Shown: positions 2 to 8,759 of the stretch, one piece after another
Layout of the letters: each line of letters opens with the position of its first letter
Numbering within the stretch: the stretch's first letter is position 1
From: Flavobacteriales bacterium
Lineage (GTDB): Bacteria > Bacteroidota > Bacteroidia > Flavobacteriales > UBA7430
Length of the DNA: 43,148 bases
Reading direction: 5' to 3'
Assembly (NCBI GenBank): GCA_029247585.1
Contig: JAQWKY010000090.1
Coordinates: 1-43,148, forward strand
Notes under the pieces: model-generated
Databases searched by the model: none
Told to the model about the DNA's origin: nothing
The model's input: the letters and a program-made list of their open reading frames with translations, nothing else
Made by a program: the position numbers and the translations under genes

Positions 2-1279
2 CAATACGCCTGCTACACCGGTACTATTTGCAATACCAAGATTACAGGTGTCTGTTCCCGGACATGCAGTTACATCATGAGTACTGTCAGCCCCCGGCTC
101 TGCAAAACCTAGTCCATCTAACTCACTGTAAAGTACTTTTAGATTCGCCTCTGGGACGAACTTAATTACAAAACCTTGTCCGATAGTAAATCGAATTTCG
201 TCGGAAGCCAAGCGCTCTACAATCTTTGCCAAGGCACGTGCTTGAGTCGTTGTAAAGTCTCCCGTAAGAAGTCTTACATTTACCGCAAAGTAGCCCTCTT
301 GCTTTTGAGCAATCACATTACTTTTAAACCACTTATCGTATGCTTCGGCGTCAACATCTACAGCAACGGCTTCGGTTAAAGGCTCCGGTCTTTTAGTCTC
401 TTCATAAGCCTCGTGATCTATGTGAAAAGTTTTATATTTTAAAGCTTTACGCTCTAACTCTACCAATCTTTGAAACTCTTCAACACCAATCTTTTTCACC
501 AAGTACTTTAAGCGTGCTTTGTTTCTTCGGGCTCTTTCACCGTGTTTGTCAAATACACGTACCAGTGCTTCACTATAAGGAATAATCGCATCTTCCGGAA
601 GGAAATCGTAAACCGACTGAGCTAGGTAAGGCTGAGCACCCAAACCTCCTGCAATTACCACTTTAAATCCGCGTTGCTCTACATTATCAATAATCTTTGT
701 TTTGGCAATAAACCCAATGTCGTGAATGAAGGTGTAAGCGCTGTCTTCTTCGTTTGATGAAAAGGCAATTTTCACCTTACGCCCCATCTCTTGAGAGATA
801 GGGTTTCTCAAGAAGAAATCAAACATAGCGTGTGCGTACGGACTCACATCAAACGGTTCGTTTTTATCGACTCCGGCTAAAGCAGAAGCGGTAATATTTC
901 TTACCGTATTTCCACAAGCTTCACGCAAGGTAACATCATCTTTTTCGAGCTCTGCCCACAGTTGTGGTGTTCTATCCAAACTCACGTAATGAATTTGAAT
1001 ATCTTGACGTGTGGTAATGTGAAGTTTTCCTGTTGAATATTCATCCGCTACGTCGGCAATTCTAAGTAACTGGTTCACTTTTGTCTTTCCGTAAGGAAGC
1101 TTAATCCGGATCATTTGCACACCAGATTGACGCTGCCCATAAACCCCTCTAGCCAACCGAAGACTTCTAAACTTATCTTCGTCTAACTTCCCATCTTTAA
1201 ACAGGTGGATTTTTCTTTCCAGCTCAATAATATCCTTTTCTACTATGGGATTTTCAATTTCAGTTCTAAAACTTTGCAT
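2..1279 (-). CDS. Siroheme/[4Fe-4S] sulfite (nitrite/sulfite) reductase hemoprotein, Bacteroidota type; 3' end runs off the window
   Basis: Not in the ORF track; translated by hand from ATG at 1279: MQSFRTEIENPIVEKDIIELERKIHLFKDGKLDEDKFRSLRLARGVYGQRQSGVQMIRIKLPYG...; also HITTRQDIQIH, LREACGNTVRN, GRKVKIAFS and TACPGTDTCNLGIA motifs of NIR/SIR enzymes. Confidence 0.9.
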   Translation of the reverse strand, partial: MQSFRTEIENPIVEKDIIELERKIHLFKDGKLDEDKFRSLRLARGVYGQRQSGVQMIRIKLPYGKTKVNQLLRIADVADEYSTGKLHITTRQDIQIHYVSLDRTPQLWAELEKDDVTLREACGNTVRNITASALAGVDKNEPFDVSPYAHAMFDFFLRNPISQEMGRKVKIAFSSNEEDSAYTFIHDIGFIAKTKIIDNVEQRGFKVVIAGGLGAQPYLAQSVYDFLPEDAIIPYSEALVRVFDKHGERARRNKARLKYLVKKIGVEEFQRLVELERKALKYKTFHIDHEAYEETKRPEPLTEAVAVDVDAEAYDKWFKSNVIAQKQEGYFAVNVRLLTGDFTTTQARALAKIVERLASDEIRFTIGQGFVIKFVPEANLKVLYSELDGLGFAEPGADSTHDVTACPGTDTCNLGIANSTGVAGVL

Positions 1280-1309: not shown

Positions 1310-1340
1310 AAAAAAAAACCTTTCGATGAGGAAAGGCTTT
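1310..1340 (-). terminator. Intrinsic terminator (attenuator) in the reductase leader
   Basis: mRNA AAAGCCUUUC-CUCAUC-GAAAGGUUUU followed by more U's; ends about 30 nt before the reductase ATG. Confidence 0.85.
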
Positions 1341-1363
1341 GTATATCTATGATTTCTTGTTTG

Positions 1364-1474
1364 TCATGAGCATATATCTAACCTTTCGTTTTGTGTACAA
1401 CAACACATTACATAACAGGCACAACAATTCATCATTGCGTTGTTCTGGTTAGTGTATGTATTTGAATTTTTCAT
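1364..1474 (-). CDS. Cys/Met-rich leader peptide 2 (36 aa, MKNSNTYTNQNNAMMNCCACYVMCCCTQNERLDICS)
   Basis: ATG 1474, TGA 1364-1366; 7 Cys and 3 internal Met codons; directly upstream of a terminator and a sulfur-assimilation gene. Confidence 0.85.
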   Translation of the reverse strand: MKNSNTYTNQNNAMMNCCACYVMCCCTQNERLDICS

Positions 1475-1524: not shown

Positions 1525-1611
1525 TTAGCAACAACAGCAAGCTGCCTGTGTGGATACACAAGCTGATCTAGAAAGATCATTCGATAGGGCTAAAAAAGTA
1601 ACTTTGTTCAT
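1525..1611 (-). CDS. Poly-Cys leader peptide 1 (28 aa, MNKVTFLALSNDLSRSACVSTQAACCCC)
   Basis: ATG 1611, four consecutive Cys codons (TGC TGT TGT TGC) immediately before TAA 1525-1527. Confidence 0.8.
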   Translation of the reverse strand: MNKVTFLALSNDLSRSACVSTQAACCCC

Positions 1612-1650: not shown

Positions 1651-1683
1651 TAAATATACAACCATAATCGACTATAAAACAAA
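1651..1683 (-). promoter_or_regulatory. Putative Bacteroidota sigma-ABfr-type promoter for the leader/reductase transcript
   Basis: Minus strand TTTG-N21-TATATTTA, one mismatch to the TTTG-N19-21-TAnnTTTG consensus, 40 nt upstream of leader 1. Confidence 0.5.
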
Positions 1684-1858: not shown

Positions 1859-4393
1859 ATGAACTATTTATGGGTAATACTGTTGTTTGCAAGTCCTTTG
1901 AATGCCCAATTTGCAGATGATTTTTCTGATGGCAATTTCAAAAAAAACCCGCCCTGGCAAGGCATAGAAGAACATTTTGAGATAGATGATAAAAACAGAT
2001 TGCACTTAAATGCGCCCAGAGAAAGTGGGGCTTCCTACTTAAGGACAAAGACTGAGCTGTTAGAAAATGCCTCATGGGAAATGTCCCTGACATTAGAGTT
2101 CAATCCCTCCTCATCAAACTATGTAGACTGGTATTTAATGGCGAATGATTCGGTGTTAAAGAATTCCACAAAAGCCTATTTTGTTCGAATTGGAGGTGCT
2201 CTGGACGAGGTTTCACTTTACCGTAAAACCAACGAAGAAGAAATTAAACTTATTGATGGCTTGAATAAGCGCATTGATAGCAATCCTGTGAATCTGCGCC
2301 TAAAAGCCACACAAACCCTAGATGGGCACTGGAGTTTATGGATAGATGCATTGGAGGGAAAGGGCTGGGTTTTGGAAGGTGATGTAAGAGACTTTGAAGT
2401 TCGTGAAACGAGTTACTCAGGCGTCCATTGTGTATACACTTCCACGCGTAGTAATCGATTTTATTTTGATGATTTTATCCTTGAGGGCACGCTCTTCATA
2501 GATAGCATTCCTCCGAAACTAATTGCATCTTCAATCGTAAAAGAAAATACAATCCAACTGAATTTTGATGCTGAAGATCTTAGTCTTCCCTCTTTGAGTC
2601 ACTACAAATTAACCCCCCAATCAGTACGACCCAAACAAGTTCTACAAACCGGAACTAAAATAATCCTCATCTTTGAAAATGCACTTCCAAGTAACGAGCA
2701 TTTTCAACTCAAAATAAGCGGTATATCAGACACTTTGGGCAATCTAATGGCAGATACACTTCTCAACTTTTACAGACAGAAACATCAACAATTCGACCTC
2801 GTCATACATGAGATCATGATGAATCCAGAGCCTACTGTTCAATTGCCAAACGTGGAATATATTGAACTCTTCAATCGTGCTAATTATGCGCTAAATATCA
2901 AAGGTTGGCAAGTAAAAACAAATAGCTCGGTACGGACAATTCCGGAGGTTACTCTCGAAGCTAATGAATACCTCCTACTGATGAACCCGGAAGATTTGTA
3001 TGCTTTTAACAATGCTTTAAAACGCCCTCTGAGCCCATGGGTATACTTAGGCAACACCGAAGGCTATATAGGCCTTTTGGACGAGAAAGGGGCAATCATC
3101 CACGAGGTCCAATACCATAAATCATGGATTCAAAACTCGAATAAAGAACGAGGGGGTTGGTCACTAGAAATGATTGACCCAAAGCATTACTGTGCTGGAA
3201 AAAACAATTGGGGGGCCTGTAAAAACCAAGTCGGCGGAACACCTGGATATTCAAACAGTATAGAAGAAAATAAACTCGATAGTAACCGTGTACATATTAA
3301 AGCGATTGAAGTCATTCAGCAAAATGAAATACAATTTAACTGGTCAGAAAATCTGTACGACTCGACACTTTTCAAAATCGACTACACCTACTTTCATCCC
3401 GAAATTAGTGTTCATAGCATCCACCATATGAGGAACAAAACCTTTGTTGAATTTACAGACAATTTGGAAGAAGGGAAAAGCTATTTATTTAACCCAAGTA
3501 AACTCAAAGACTGCTACAACAATGAAATAGGGCAACACGAACTAGAATTTATAAAAGGGGCCTGGCCCAAAGTAGGCTCCATTTACCTCAATGAATTATT
3601 GTTTAACCCCAAGGTAGGAGGTTATGACTATGTGGAACTTTACAACGCCTCAGAAGAATACGTGGACCTTTCCAAACTTTACCTTGGAAATTACGACAGC
3701 CTTTTTAATGACATTACAAATACAGAGCGCATCAGCTTAAGGCCCATCAACTTTCCGCCAAAGGCCTACCTTGCTTTGTGTGAAAGCAAAGATTGGATTG
3801 AATCAAATTACAAAACAAATGAGCATCTGTTTTTTCTTGAGGTCGATCAGCTTCCGAACCTCCCTAATAAAAAAGGAAGTATCGCCTTGAGTAATCTGGC
3901 TTATGAAATTATCGACAAGTATTCCTACCATGAAGACAGTCATTTCTCTCGATTAGAGTCCGTAAAAGGGGTTGCTCTTGAAAGGTTAAATCCTTCGTCA
4001 GAAGAATGGTTCTCGGCATCATCGACTGAAAATTACGGCACTCCCGGTAGAAAAAACTCACAATTCACTTACTCAGTGCCGAGCAAAACAAAATTAGAAA
4101 TCGTACCCGACGTTTTTACCCCCAATTTGGATGGCAAAGAAGACTTCACAAACATCACATTAGTGCCAAAAAATCCGGTGAAGACAAACATCCGTATTTA
4201 CAATAAAAAAGGATTAGAAGTCCGAAAAATCTGTCAATCGGAATTGATCACTCAGAAAACAAGCTGGATTTGGGATGGGTTGGACGAAGAGAGTCTCGAC
4301 CTACCGATGGGCATTTATATGATTGTTGTTGAATTGTGGGCATCGAAAGGCAAGCCCGAGTATTTAAAGCACCCTGTAGTTATACATTACTAA
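1859..4393 (+). CDS. Secreted lamin-tail-domain protein with T9SS type B (CHU_C / gliding-motility-associated) C-terminal domain
   Basis: Signal peptide; two LTD-like motifs (IHEIMMNPEP..EYIELFN and LNELLFNPK..DYVELYN); C-terminal VFTPNLDGKED..WDG..LPMGIY. Confidence 0.75.
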   Translation: MNYLWVILLFASPLNAQFADDFSDGNFKKNPPWQGIEEHFEIDDKNRLHLNAPRESGASYLRTKTELLENASWEMSLTLEFNPSSSNYVDWYLMANDSVLKNSTKAYFVRIGGALDEVSLYRKTNEEEIKLIDGLNKRIDSNPVNLRLKATQTLDGHWSLWIDALEGKGWVLEGDVRDFEVRETSYSGVHCVYTSTRSNRFYFDDFILEGTLFIDSIPPKLIASSIVKENTIQLNFDAEDLSLPSLSHYKLTPQSVRPKQVLQTGTKIILIFENALPSNEHFQLKISGISDTLGNLMADTLLNFYRQKHQQFDLVIHEIMMNPEPTVQLPNVEYIELFNRANYALNIKGWQVKTNSSVRTIPEVTLEANEYLLLMNPEDLYAFNNALKRPLSPWVYLGNTEGYIGLLDEKGAIIHEVQYHKSWIQNSNKERGGWSLEMIDPKHYCAGKNNWGACKNQVGGTPGYSNSIEENKLDSNRVHIKAIEVIQQNEIQFNWSENLYDSTLFKIDYTYFHPEISVHSIHHMRNKTFVEFTDNLEEGKSYLFNPSKLKDCYNNEIGQHELEFIKGAWPKVGSIYLNELLFNPKVGGYDYVELYNASEEYVDLSKLYLGNYDSLFNDITNTERISLRPINFPPKAYLALCESKDWIESNYKTNEHLFFLEVDQLPNLPNKKGSIALSNLAYEIIDKYSYHEDSHFSRLESVKGVALERLNPSSEEWFSASSTENYGTPGRKNSQFTYSVPSKTKLEIVPDVFTPNLDGKEDFTNITLVPKNPVKTNIRIYNKKGLEVRKICQSELITQKTSWIWDGLDEESLDLPMGIYMIVVELWASKGKPEYLKHPVVIHY

Positions 4394-7715: not shown

Positions 7716-8759
7716 TTACTTTTTATTGGCTAACTGCCCACAAGCCGCATCGATGTCTTTACCTCGACTTCTTCGAATGTTTACCACGACCCCTCGTGCT
7801 TCAAGATAATCTCTAAAAGTGTCTACTTTCTCCTCTTTTGCTTGTTTGAACTCCCCCCCATCAATCGGGTTGTATTCGATGATGTTCACTTTACAGGGAA
7901 TGTGTTTGCAAAATTCGTAGAGTTCATGTGCATCTTGTAATTCATCATTAAAATTGTCGAAGATGATGTATTCGTAAGTAACTCTCGATTGTGTTTTTTC
8001 GTAAAAATATTTTAGTGCTTTTGCCAAAACCTCCAAATTATTGGTTTCGTTGATGCCCATTATTTTATCACGCTTCTCATCATTTGCCGCGTGAAGTGAT
8101 AATGCCAAATTGAATTTCACATCATCATCAGCCAGCTTTTCGATCATTTTAGCAACTCCGGCAGTAGAAACAGTAATGCGTTTCGGCGACATACCCAAGC
8201 CTTCTTCAGACGTAATTTTTTCTATAGACTCCAATACGTGATTGTAGTTCAATAAAGGCTCCCCCATCCCCATGTATACGATGTTCGAAAGCGGCTGTCC
8301 GTTTCGCTCCAGAGCCTGATCTCGAATGATTCTTACCTGGTCGTAAATTTCATCGGCATGAATGTTACGCATGCGCTTTAAGCGTCCCGTGGCACAAAAC
8401 TCACAGGCCAAACTACATCCTACTTGAGAGGAAATACAGGCCGTCATTCGGGTATCTGCAGGAATTAACACCCCTTCACAAATTTGATCATCAAACAAAC
8501 GAAAGGCGTTTTTTATGGTTCCATCGTTGCTGTATTGAGAGTCGTCTATTTGAACCGCATTAATGGTGAAGCCCTCCTTCAGCATTTGTCTAGTAGACAA
8601 CGAAAGGTTTGTCATCTGGTCAAAATCGGTAGCCGACTTTTTCCACAACCACTCATATACTTGCTTGGCACGAAAGGCTTTTTCGCCTTTAGCCACAAAA
8701 TATTCTTTGAGTTTTTCTTTCGATAAAGCTCTGATGTCCTGTTTCTCCTGCTTTTTCAT
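7716..8759 (-). CDS. rlmN: 23S rRNA m2A2503 radical SAM methyltransferase
   Basis: CISSQVGCSLACEFCATG, MGMGEP, DIDAACGQL; start ATG 8759. Confidence 0.95.
   Translation of the reverse strand: MKKQEKQDIRALSKEKLKEYFVAKGEKAFRAKQVYEWLWKKSATDFDQMTNLSLSTRQMLKEGFTINAVQIDDSQYSNDGTIKNAFRLFDDQICEGVLIPADTRMTACISSQVGCSLACEFCATGRLKRMRNIHADEIYDQVRIIRDQALERNGQPLSNIVYMGMGEPLLNYNHVLESIEKITSEEGLGMSPKRITVSTAGVAKMIEKLADDDVKFNLALSLHAANDEKRDKIMGINETNNLEVLAKALKYFYEKTQSRVTYEYIIFDNFNDELQDAHELYEFCKHIPCKVNIIEYNPIDGGEFKQAKEEKVDTFRDYLEARGVVVNIRRSRGKDIDAACGQLANKK

Follow-up and report, generated by a model that had tools for sequence, protein, structure and literature searches.

Classical leader-peptide attenuation is known from enterobacteria, where trpL and hisL are examples and where thrL and ilvL serve for several amino acids. 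Here we examine a leader on the minus strand of a Flavobacteriales contig (NCBI GenBank assembly GCA_029247585.1, contig JAQWKY010000090.1), at positions 1474–1310 of a stretch of 43,148 nucleotides (nt) that we call the window, and we argue from its sequence and from folding models that it is very probably a ribosome-mediated, cysteine (Cys)-responsive transcription attenuator of a sulfite reductase and cysteine synthesis operon. The leader carries an upstream open reading frame (uORF), uORF2, that is rich in Cys and methionine (Met) codons and is followed by a hairpin with the form of an intrinsic terminator.

Small open reading frames (sORFs) with Cys codons have been described elsewhere, in reports whose text was available in part, and what we say of them is limited to those parts. 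In mycobacteria, leaderless polycysteine sORFs sense the supply of Cys-tRNA through runs of Cys codons and control cysteine and sulfur genes (bioRxiv 10.1101/834739), and the actinobacterial cys leader peptides are Cys-codon sORFs with no recognizable terminator (PMC1262725). The uORF2 leader shares with both the run of Cys codons in a short upstream ORF, but those leaders, as far as the available text goes, have a sequestered ribosome-binding site or no terminator, are leaderless, and are not described as containing Met sensor codons, whereas uORF2 is combined with an intrinsic terminator and a competing antiterminator. On the leader studied here a further ORF, uORF1, stands upstream of uORF2, and behind uORF2 there is a terminator and not a sequestering helix. 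In Rhodobacterales, uORFC-8-2 precedes cysS and has been proposed to be a ribosome-mediated attenuator, with a terminator stem and a U run coming after a Cys-codon uORF (PMC8632094). In the available part of that report, uORFC-8-2 has only two tandem Cys codons, these lie inside the first stem, the gene is a tRNA synthetase gene of Alphaproteobacteria, and Met codons are not mentioned; the uORF2 leader is not uORFC-8-2, for it has sulfite reductase downstream and differs in codon pattern and phylum. Leader-peptide attenuation before amino acid operons has also been described in Flavobacterium psychrophilum (PMC9723704).

The uORF2 leader and its predicted switch

Seven of the codons of uORF2 encode Cys (17, 18, 20, 24, 25, 26 and 35) and three internal codons encode Met (14, 15 and 23), so that the Cys-rich reading frame with interleaved Met codons that an earlier note on this DNA had pointed out is indeed present at 1474–1364. 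A cluster of this density is rare. When we collected all ATG-started sORFs of 8–80 amino acids from the six frames of the whole genome, two of 23,400, uORF2 included, had at least six Cys in 13 residues, and uORF1 was among nine with five Cys in 13 residues. When the genome's sORFs are ranked by Cys density, seven of the top 11 lie inside long ORFs, and uORF1 and uORF2 are two of the remaining four. The earlier note also pointed out that six of the seven Cys codons are TGT (the other is TGC), but across all long ORFs of the genome TGT accounts for 73.5% of Cys codons (3995 of 5433), and the preference is thus ordinary usage here.

The core of the proposed switch is a 9-mer that occurs twice on the minus strand of the leader, at 1388–1380 and at 1325–1317. 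As had been claimed, either copy can pair with 1339–1331, and terminator and antiterminator are mutually exclusive because both use this strand. A third copy, on the plus strand at 8601–8609, is unrelated; the three matches in the window compare with 0.62 expected, and three were reached in one of 100 shuffles. The terminator-like hairpin spans 1340–1315, with 10 pairs, of which 3 are G-C, a loop of 6 and then a run of nine T (T9), and it stands 30 nt before the start codon at 1279. The upstream 9-mer forms 8 pairs (one of them G-U) with the terminator 5′ arm, giving a duplex of −9.1 kcal/mol that is better than expected from 1000 shuffles of the uORF 3′ end (p = 0.007). Two further details belong to the earlier folding scheme. 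The TATAT/ATATA and ATGA/TCAT pairs, which had been thought to extend the antiterminator, do exist; they form a spacer hairpin at 1376–1342 that is present in the terminator and antiterminator states alike. The weak hairpin that was supposed to protect the antiterminator strand by engaging the Cys-codon region is no rival to the antiterminator when the nascent-RNA ensemble is modelled (pairing probability P = 0.97 for the antiterminator with no ribosome).

To model the effect of a ribosome, we folded the nascent RNA as it would be before the terminator 3′ arm emerges, with the bases covered by the ribosome blocked. The footprint extended from 18 nt before to 12 nt after the first A-site base and replaced an earlier model of −15 to +12. 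The mean pair probability of the antiterminator is 0.97 in the absence of a ribosome and also when the A site is at codons 14–25. It is 0.81 with the ribosome at codon 26 and falls to 0.00 at codons 28, 30, 32, 34, 35 and 37 (the stop codon). The last Cys codon of the cluster begins 12 nt 5′ of the first paired antiterminator base, which places that base just past the front edge of the ribosome. The folding model thus agrees with the suggestion that a ribosome stalled at the Cys and Met codons would leave the antiterminator free.

From these results we propose the following sequence of events. RNA polymerase would transcribe uORF2 with a ribosome behind it. When Cys-tRNA, and probably also elongator Met-tRNA, is well charged, the ribosome would move beyond codon 26, cover 1388–1380 and melt the spacer hairpin; the free strand at 1339–1331 would then pair with 1324–1316 to make the intrinsic terminator, and transcription would stop at T9, 30 nt short of the sulfite reductase start codon. 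If charging is poor instead, the ribosome would wait at codons 14–26 with its front edge just before 1388, so that 1388–1380 could capture 1339–1331 as soon as it is made; no terminator would form and the operon would be transcribed. We infer that uORF2 is translated and that both termination and read-through take place in the cell. The features of the leader and its surroundings are collected in Table 1.

Table 1. Positions in the window of the leader elements and flanking genes
Feature	Position	Strand	Remarks
uORF2, leader peptide ORF	1364..1474	minus	36 codons and TGA
Candidate sensor codon cluster	1397..1435	minus	Met 14, 15, 23; Cys 17, 18, 20, 24, 25, 26
Predicted antiterminator 5′ strand (segment 2)	1380..1388	minus	copy of terminator 3′ arm, inside uORF2 codons 29–32
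Spacer hairpin	1342..1376	minus	5′ strand includes the uORF2 stop codon; places segments 2 and 3 close to each other
Shared strand (segment 3)	1331..1340	minus	terminator 5′ arm and antiterminator 3′ strand
Terminator 3′ arm and T9 tract	1310..1324	minus	arm 1324–1315, T9 1318–1310
uORF1, short form from ATG at 1611	1525..1611	minus	four Cys codons directly before stop; no terminator of its own
Sulfite reductase gene, ferredoxin-type (NirA/Sir family) hemoprotein	2..1279	minus	Pfam NIR_SIR and NIR_SIR_ferr; truncated by contig end
Putative Bacteroidota-type promoter	1651..1683	minus	−33 element about 1683–1680, −7 element about 1658–1651
Divergent neighbour gene	1859..4393	plus	844 amino acids; Lamin Tail Domains and CHU_C type IX secretion signal

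Conservation and recurrence of the design

The leader can be aligned in two genomes of the same genus and one of the same family, with identities of 92%, 85% and 76%. In a DNA search of 40 relatives, G001, G002 and G004 gave the only real matches, and short hits at E > 1e-4 were dropped as terminator-like or chance. Both uORFs, both copies of the 9-mer and the shared strand are kept in these three genomes (alignment A1) and in metagenome contigs L188 and L189, while the uORF2 peptide is free to diverge except in the Cys/Met cluster and in the codons that form the antiterminator strand. At one further locus, L024, a near-identical RNA motif is translated in another frame, which points to selection on the RNA and not on the peptide.

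We then examined the regions upstream of sulfite reductase genes at the best 80 genome loci by similarity, in 47 genomes of the order and at the 80 top metagenome loci. A sulfite reductase gene is present in 51 of 401 genomes of the order. At seven of the 80 genome loci (L021, L022, L024, L064, L083, L085 and L091) a Cys-dense sORF lies no more than about 310 nt from the gene. Hits at L025, L032, L037, L054 and L095 were rejected as an alternative frame of a ferredoxin-like ORF, and far-upstream hits (for example at L026, L029, L034, L056 and L097) were left out of the leader set. The survey of the order found Cys sORFs in G000, G001, G002, G004, G021, G038, G053 and G071; in four further genomes of the order (L141–L144) 800 nt were scanned. 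Nine of the 80 top metagenome loci carry leaders, in a set where two loci have no recognizable gene start and several are incomplete, and L228, L239 and L264, with three Cys only and far upstream, were dropped. Altogether we count 34 candidate sORFs in 22 loci, including those of a Roseivirgaceae metagenome-assembled genome (MAG), Kordia, a Pedobacter, several Flavobacteriales MAGs and two further families. Cys-dense sORFs therefore recur beside sulfite reductase or its operon, and the distribution of the design is patchy.

Seventeen leader types from Flavobacteriales, Cytophagales and metagenomes have a hairpin-plus-T-run terminator, and we asked of each whether the last uORF codons, or the bases directly behind them, can pair with the terminator 5′ arm. 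This duplex test was used because the automatic nascent-fold test is unsuited to leaders with a second Cys group near the stop codon (L145, L146, L147, L200 and L222). In 12 of the 17 types the pairing is better than expected from 1000 shuffles at p < 0.05, and the combined p value by Fisher's method is 1.4e-13. Since the arms have different sequences in different lineages, the recurrent pairing is covariation at the level of the design. The spacing recurs as well: in 10 of 12 unrelated leaders the paired strand follows the last Cys codon of the cluster at 11–21 nt, most often at 12 nt. Three loci (L091, L183 and L204) contain two complete attenuators in tandem.

Two observations concern what lies between such leaders and sulfite reductase. 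At L204, a tRNA-Cys (GCA) gene stands at 720–792 (+) between the terminator of the second leader and sulfite reductase (ARAGORN; Rfam tRNA, 56.9 bits), and read-through might also raise tRNA-Cys there. At L145, L146, L147 and L183, which represent two families, a small conserved ORF of about 90 codons is found between the Cys leaders and sulfite reductase.

Methionine codons and competing explanations

The earlier note held that Cys and Met are read together. We compared the Met content of 16 of the 34 leaders, one per type, picked by Cys density alone, with near-identical kin and one overlapping frame excluded, and took the Cys cluster together with two flanking residues as the region to be tested. 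Met accounts for 29 of 111 non-Cys residues (26%) in these clusters. In the remainder of the same peptides it accounts for 8 of 276, in the genome's 76 spurious Cys-dense sORFs for 8 of 696, and in its long ORFs for 2.1%. The enrichment is 12.6-fold for Met, compared with 3.6-fold for Trp (four residues), 2.1-fold for Thr, 1.4-fold for Ala and 0.9-fold for His. At least one cluster Met is present in 14 of the 16 leaders, and in the second uORF of L204 the Met codons of the cluster outnumber the Cys codons. The statistics thus favor joint reading, with Met at 26% in clusters against about 2–3% elsewhere, and the Met codons of uORF2 probably act as sensors too. Two metagenomic leaders, L236 and L255, have two Trp codons in place of Met mixed with the Cys codons.

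The most serious alternative to a two-amino-acid sensor, though an unlikely one, is that the attenuator responds to Cys only and that the Met codons are extra in-frame starts near the Cys run, in a phylum that works without Shine-Dalgarno pairing, or are kept for local RNA pairing. Met 14 and 15 do stand just before the first Cys codons and could serve as starts, codon 23 of the G004-type relatives, a GTG, keeps the local base pattern and not Met, and the uORF1-type leaders in G000 work without Met. However, Met makes up 20 of the 59 non-Cys residues that are enclosed by the first and last Cys, and Met codons between Cys codons are hard to explain as extra start codons, since a start there would skip part of the sensor. 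The enrichment is specific to Met, while residues whose codons are complementary to those for Cys (Thr, Ala and His) are barely enriched. The Kordia-type leaders keep their Met positions while the neighbouring residues change. In addition, sulfide from the operon feeds the neighbouring homoserine sulfhydrylase route to methionine.

It is improbable that the leader instead controls translation or mRNA stability, with the hairpin at 1340–1315 shaping access to the start codon or protecting the leader RNA. Such control would resemble that of the mycobacterial polycysteine sORFs, for which the available part of the report describes Cys-rich sORFs that free a sequestered ribosome-binding site (bioRxiv 10.1101/834739), and it could accommodate both the uORF1-type leaders that lack a terminator and two contigs assembled from RNA libraries that cross the terminator. 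Four such contigs, from four libraries of four studies and 90–95% alike to the window, lie over the leader, at 1314–1545, 1283–1592, 1131–1534 and 900–1494; one ends at 1314, a single base beyond the terminator stem, while two continue across the terminator, which we take as a weak hint. Against control of translation, T9 follows directly after the hairpin, the hairpin ends 30 nt before the start codon and so does not cover it, and the 17 leader types have their hairpin-plus-T-run terminators at the same place. Most implausible of all is that uORF2 encodes a functional small Cys-rich peptide (metal-binding, redox-active or the precursor of a ribosomally synthesized and post-translationally modified peptide) with an ordinary terminator and an incidental position: the frame and the Cys residues are conserved in relatives, but the G000-type and G004-type peptides are not conserved outside the Cys/Met cluster, lengths and sequences vary freely between lineages, the conserved RNA motif stands in a different frame in L024, the operon contains genes for sulfur assimilation and for cysteine synthesis and nothing that matches a family dedicated to peptide modification, and both the 12-nt spacing rule and the arm copy inside the ORF would be left unexplained.

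A transcription attenuator that reads Cys, and probably Met, has points against it that must be set beside this evidence. Some concern the RNA structures. The terminator is modest, with 3 G-C pairs and a hairpin energy of −7.9 to −9.1 kcal/mol, and the fold of the whole leader is unexceptional (z = −1.17; equalled by 29 of 200 shuffles). A convincing protector or pause (1:2) hairpin was not found, the alternative pairing of the minimum free energy (MFE) structure is not kept in G004, and an untranslated leader is therefore predicted to read through. For the full-length RNA at equilibrium, the terminator is favored in every state (P 0.77–0.98), with structure energies of −12.5 kcal/mol for the terminator state and −8.6 kcal/mol for the antiterminator state, so the decision between them would have to be kinetic, as in other attenuators. 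Cys codon 35 lies behind the antiterminator strand, where a stall would favor termination. Others concern the comparative record and the data. Covariation is absent within the close family, as it must be when both arms are invariant among the true homologues; no leader, defined by at least 4 Cys in 12 residues of an intergenic sORF, was found in 39 of 40 upstream regions, which measure 6 kb (in one case 5 kb) and belong for the most part to the largest family; and 5 of the 17 leader types (L085, L146, L200, the second leader of L204, and L236) fail the duplex test. As regards Met, two of the 16 leaders are without a cluster Met, codon 23 reads Val in the G004-type relatives, and the 16 leaders are partly non-independent, since they include tandem copies and kin. 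The RNA-library data, finally, are assembled contigs that may derive from DNA and from which starts, ends and expression levels are not readable.

Gene context and comparison with known systems

The window covers bases 1 to 43,148 of contig C110, in a genome of 1.79 Mb and 122 contigs whose closest named relatives are uncultured marine Flavobacteriales MAGs. The full-length G001 orthologue of the truncated sulfite reductase was scored against NCBIfam. Because the neighbour at 1859–4393 is on the opposite strand, the region 1280–1858 is a divergent intergenic region, and the element described above lies in the 5′ leader of sulfite reductase; the neighbour itself apparently bears no relation to the leader. 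The putative promoter block is conserved across the four-genome alignment A1. Its −33 and −7 elements were assigned by what we take to be the Bacteroidota consensus, a promoter type that the sigma-70 scan does not cover.

Downstream of this promoter and ahead of uORF2, uORF1 is conserved in G001, G002 and G004. In the MFE fold of 1645–1455, the bases immediately 5′ of the uORF2 start (1475–1483, minus) are engaged by the Cys codons of uORF1, and this fold stands out from its shuffles (z = −3.21; 1 of 200 as good). Translation of uORF1, or stalling on it, may thus open the start of uORF2. Upstream ORFs that end in a Cys run before the stop codon are also seen in a second family (L145 and L147).

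The gene content of the operon can be followed in the same-genus genome G001. There the leader is followed, with gaps of at most 26 bases or with overlaps, by genes for sulfite reductase, a tetrapyrrole (siroheme-type) methylase, a CysM-like synthase, and JAB, ThiS-like and MoeZ-like proteins of a sulfur-carrier route, and the operon continues with 3′-phosphoadenosine-5′-phosphosulfate (PAPS) reductase and a two-subunit 2-oxoacid:ferredoxin oxidoreductase. The CysM-like synthase with its JAB, ThiS-like and MoeZ-like (ThiF and rhodanese) partners (L268 9007–11851, minus) is unusual company for a Flavobacteriales sulfite reductase, and we take the set to be one for protein-thiocarboxylate-dependent synthesis of cysteine or homocysteine. 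Nine genes downstream of the leader, at L268 5172–5270 (minus), is an S-adenosylmethionine (SAM) riboswitch (RF00162, 80.6 bits), and behind it are metX, an OsmC-like gene, a homoserine-ester sulfhydrylase gene and a split metH; the G001 cluster therefore combines a leader-peptide attenuator with a riboswitch. With this gene content, sulfide from the attenuated operon would be a direct substrate for the synthesis of both cysteine and homocysteine. An operon that feeds both pathways would gain from reading both tRNAs, while the met genes would answer to SAM. In the G004-like contig L189, a 99-codon ORF at 407–706 (+), between uORF1 and uORF2, resembles MetX homoserine O-acetyltransferase over no more than its first ~70 positions, with a score far below the cut-off (E = 1e-7), and is an apparent gene remnant linking the leaders to methionine genes.

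We know of no worked-out regulation of sulfate or sulfite assimilation in Bacteroidota. Met-codon sensing was absent from the literature searched, save for thrA of Pasteurellales, for which it has reportedly been predicted. A search of the literature found no Cys or Met leader from Bacteroidota, although similar leaders may be named in the supplementary list of PMC9723704, which lay outside the search, and a search by terms in the available part of PMC5737381 gave no such motif. A permissive Rfam scan of 1100–2000 gave chance-level matches only, the best being Phe_leader (RF01859) at 21.4 bits against a cut-off of 55, and a gathering-mode scan of 11 related loci found no leader family and only a tRNA.

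If the leader works as we propose, sulfide production in marine Flavobacteriales and some of their relatives would be matched, with no regulatory protein, to the charging of Cys-tRNA and probably of Met-tRNA. Cysteine and methionine would be added to the few amino acids for which classical terminator-type attenuation serves as a sensor, in a natural case of two-input sensing for two amino acids of the metabolism of one element. We tentatively extend this to the view, for which the case falls somewhat short of even, that many Bacteroidota run sulfur assimilation by multivalent Cys/Met leader peptides with true two-tRNA sensing, often in series, as the tandem leaders of L091, L183 and L204, the gating of uORF2 by uORF1 and the tRNA-Cys behind the attenuators of one metagenomic relative might suggest, and so possess a ribosome-based sulfur regulon. 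For annotation, the combination of a Cys/Met cluster, a 12-nt gap and a copy of the terminator arm inside the ORF offers a simple rule for recognizing such sORFs, so far unannotated, in genomes and metagenomes, and the tandem forms could serve as compact reporters of sulfur status.

Two RNA elements invite comparison by phylum or by pathway. The Bacteroid-trp leader (RF01692) is also a leader-peptide attenuator in Bacteroidota, and its existence means that the phylum uses this form of control, but it has Trp codons and belongs to the trp operon; it gave no matches in this genome, while the Bacteroides thetaiotaomicron control gave a hit. The SAM (S-box) riboswitch RF00162 is likewise a terminator switch for sulfur amino acid genes, but its aptamer senses a metabolite with no ORF involved, and it has no match in the leader. 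The uORF2 leader is most readily set beside the enterobacterial attenuators. Like trpL, hisL, thrL and ilvL, it has a short ORF with codons for the product of the pathway and an antiterminator that shares a strand with the terminator, and the position of the ribosome would decide between the two; the presence of Cys and Met in one ORF parallels that of Thr and Ile in thrL. Unlike the enterobacterial systems, it concerns other amino acids, another pathway and another phylum, it has no Shine-Dalgarno context, and it is related to them neither in sequence nor through Rfam. Its antiterminator strand is part of the final codons of the ORF, where classic attenuators have it behind the stop codon, and with no convincing 1:2 protector, no superattenuation is predicted, unlike in the trp geometry. 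The leader-peptide attenuator is thus a known mechanism, and the uORF2 leader would be a further case of it.

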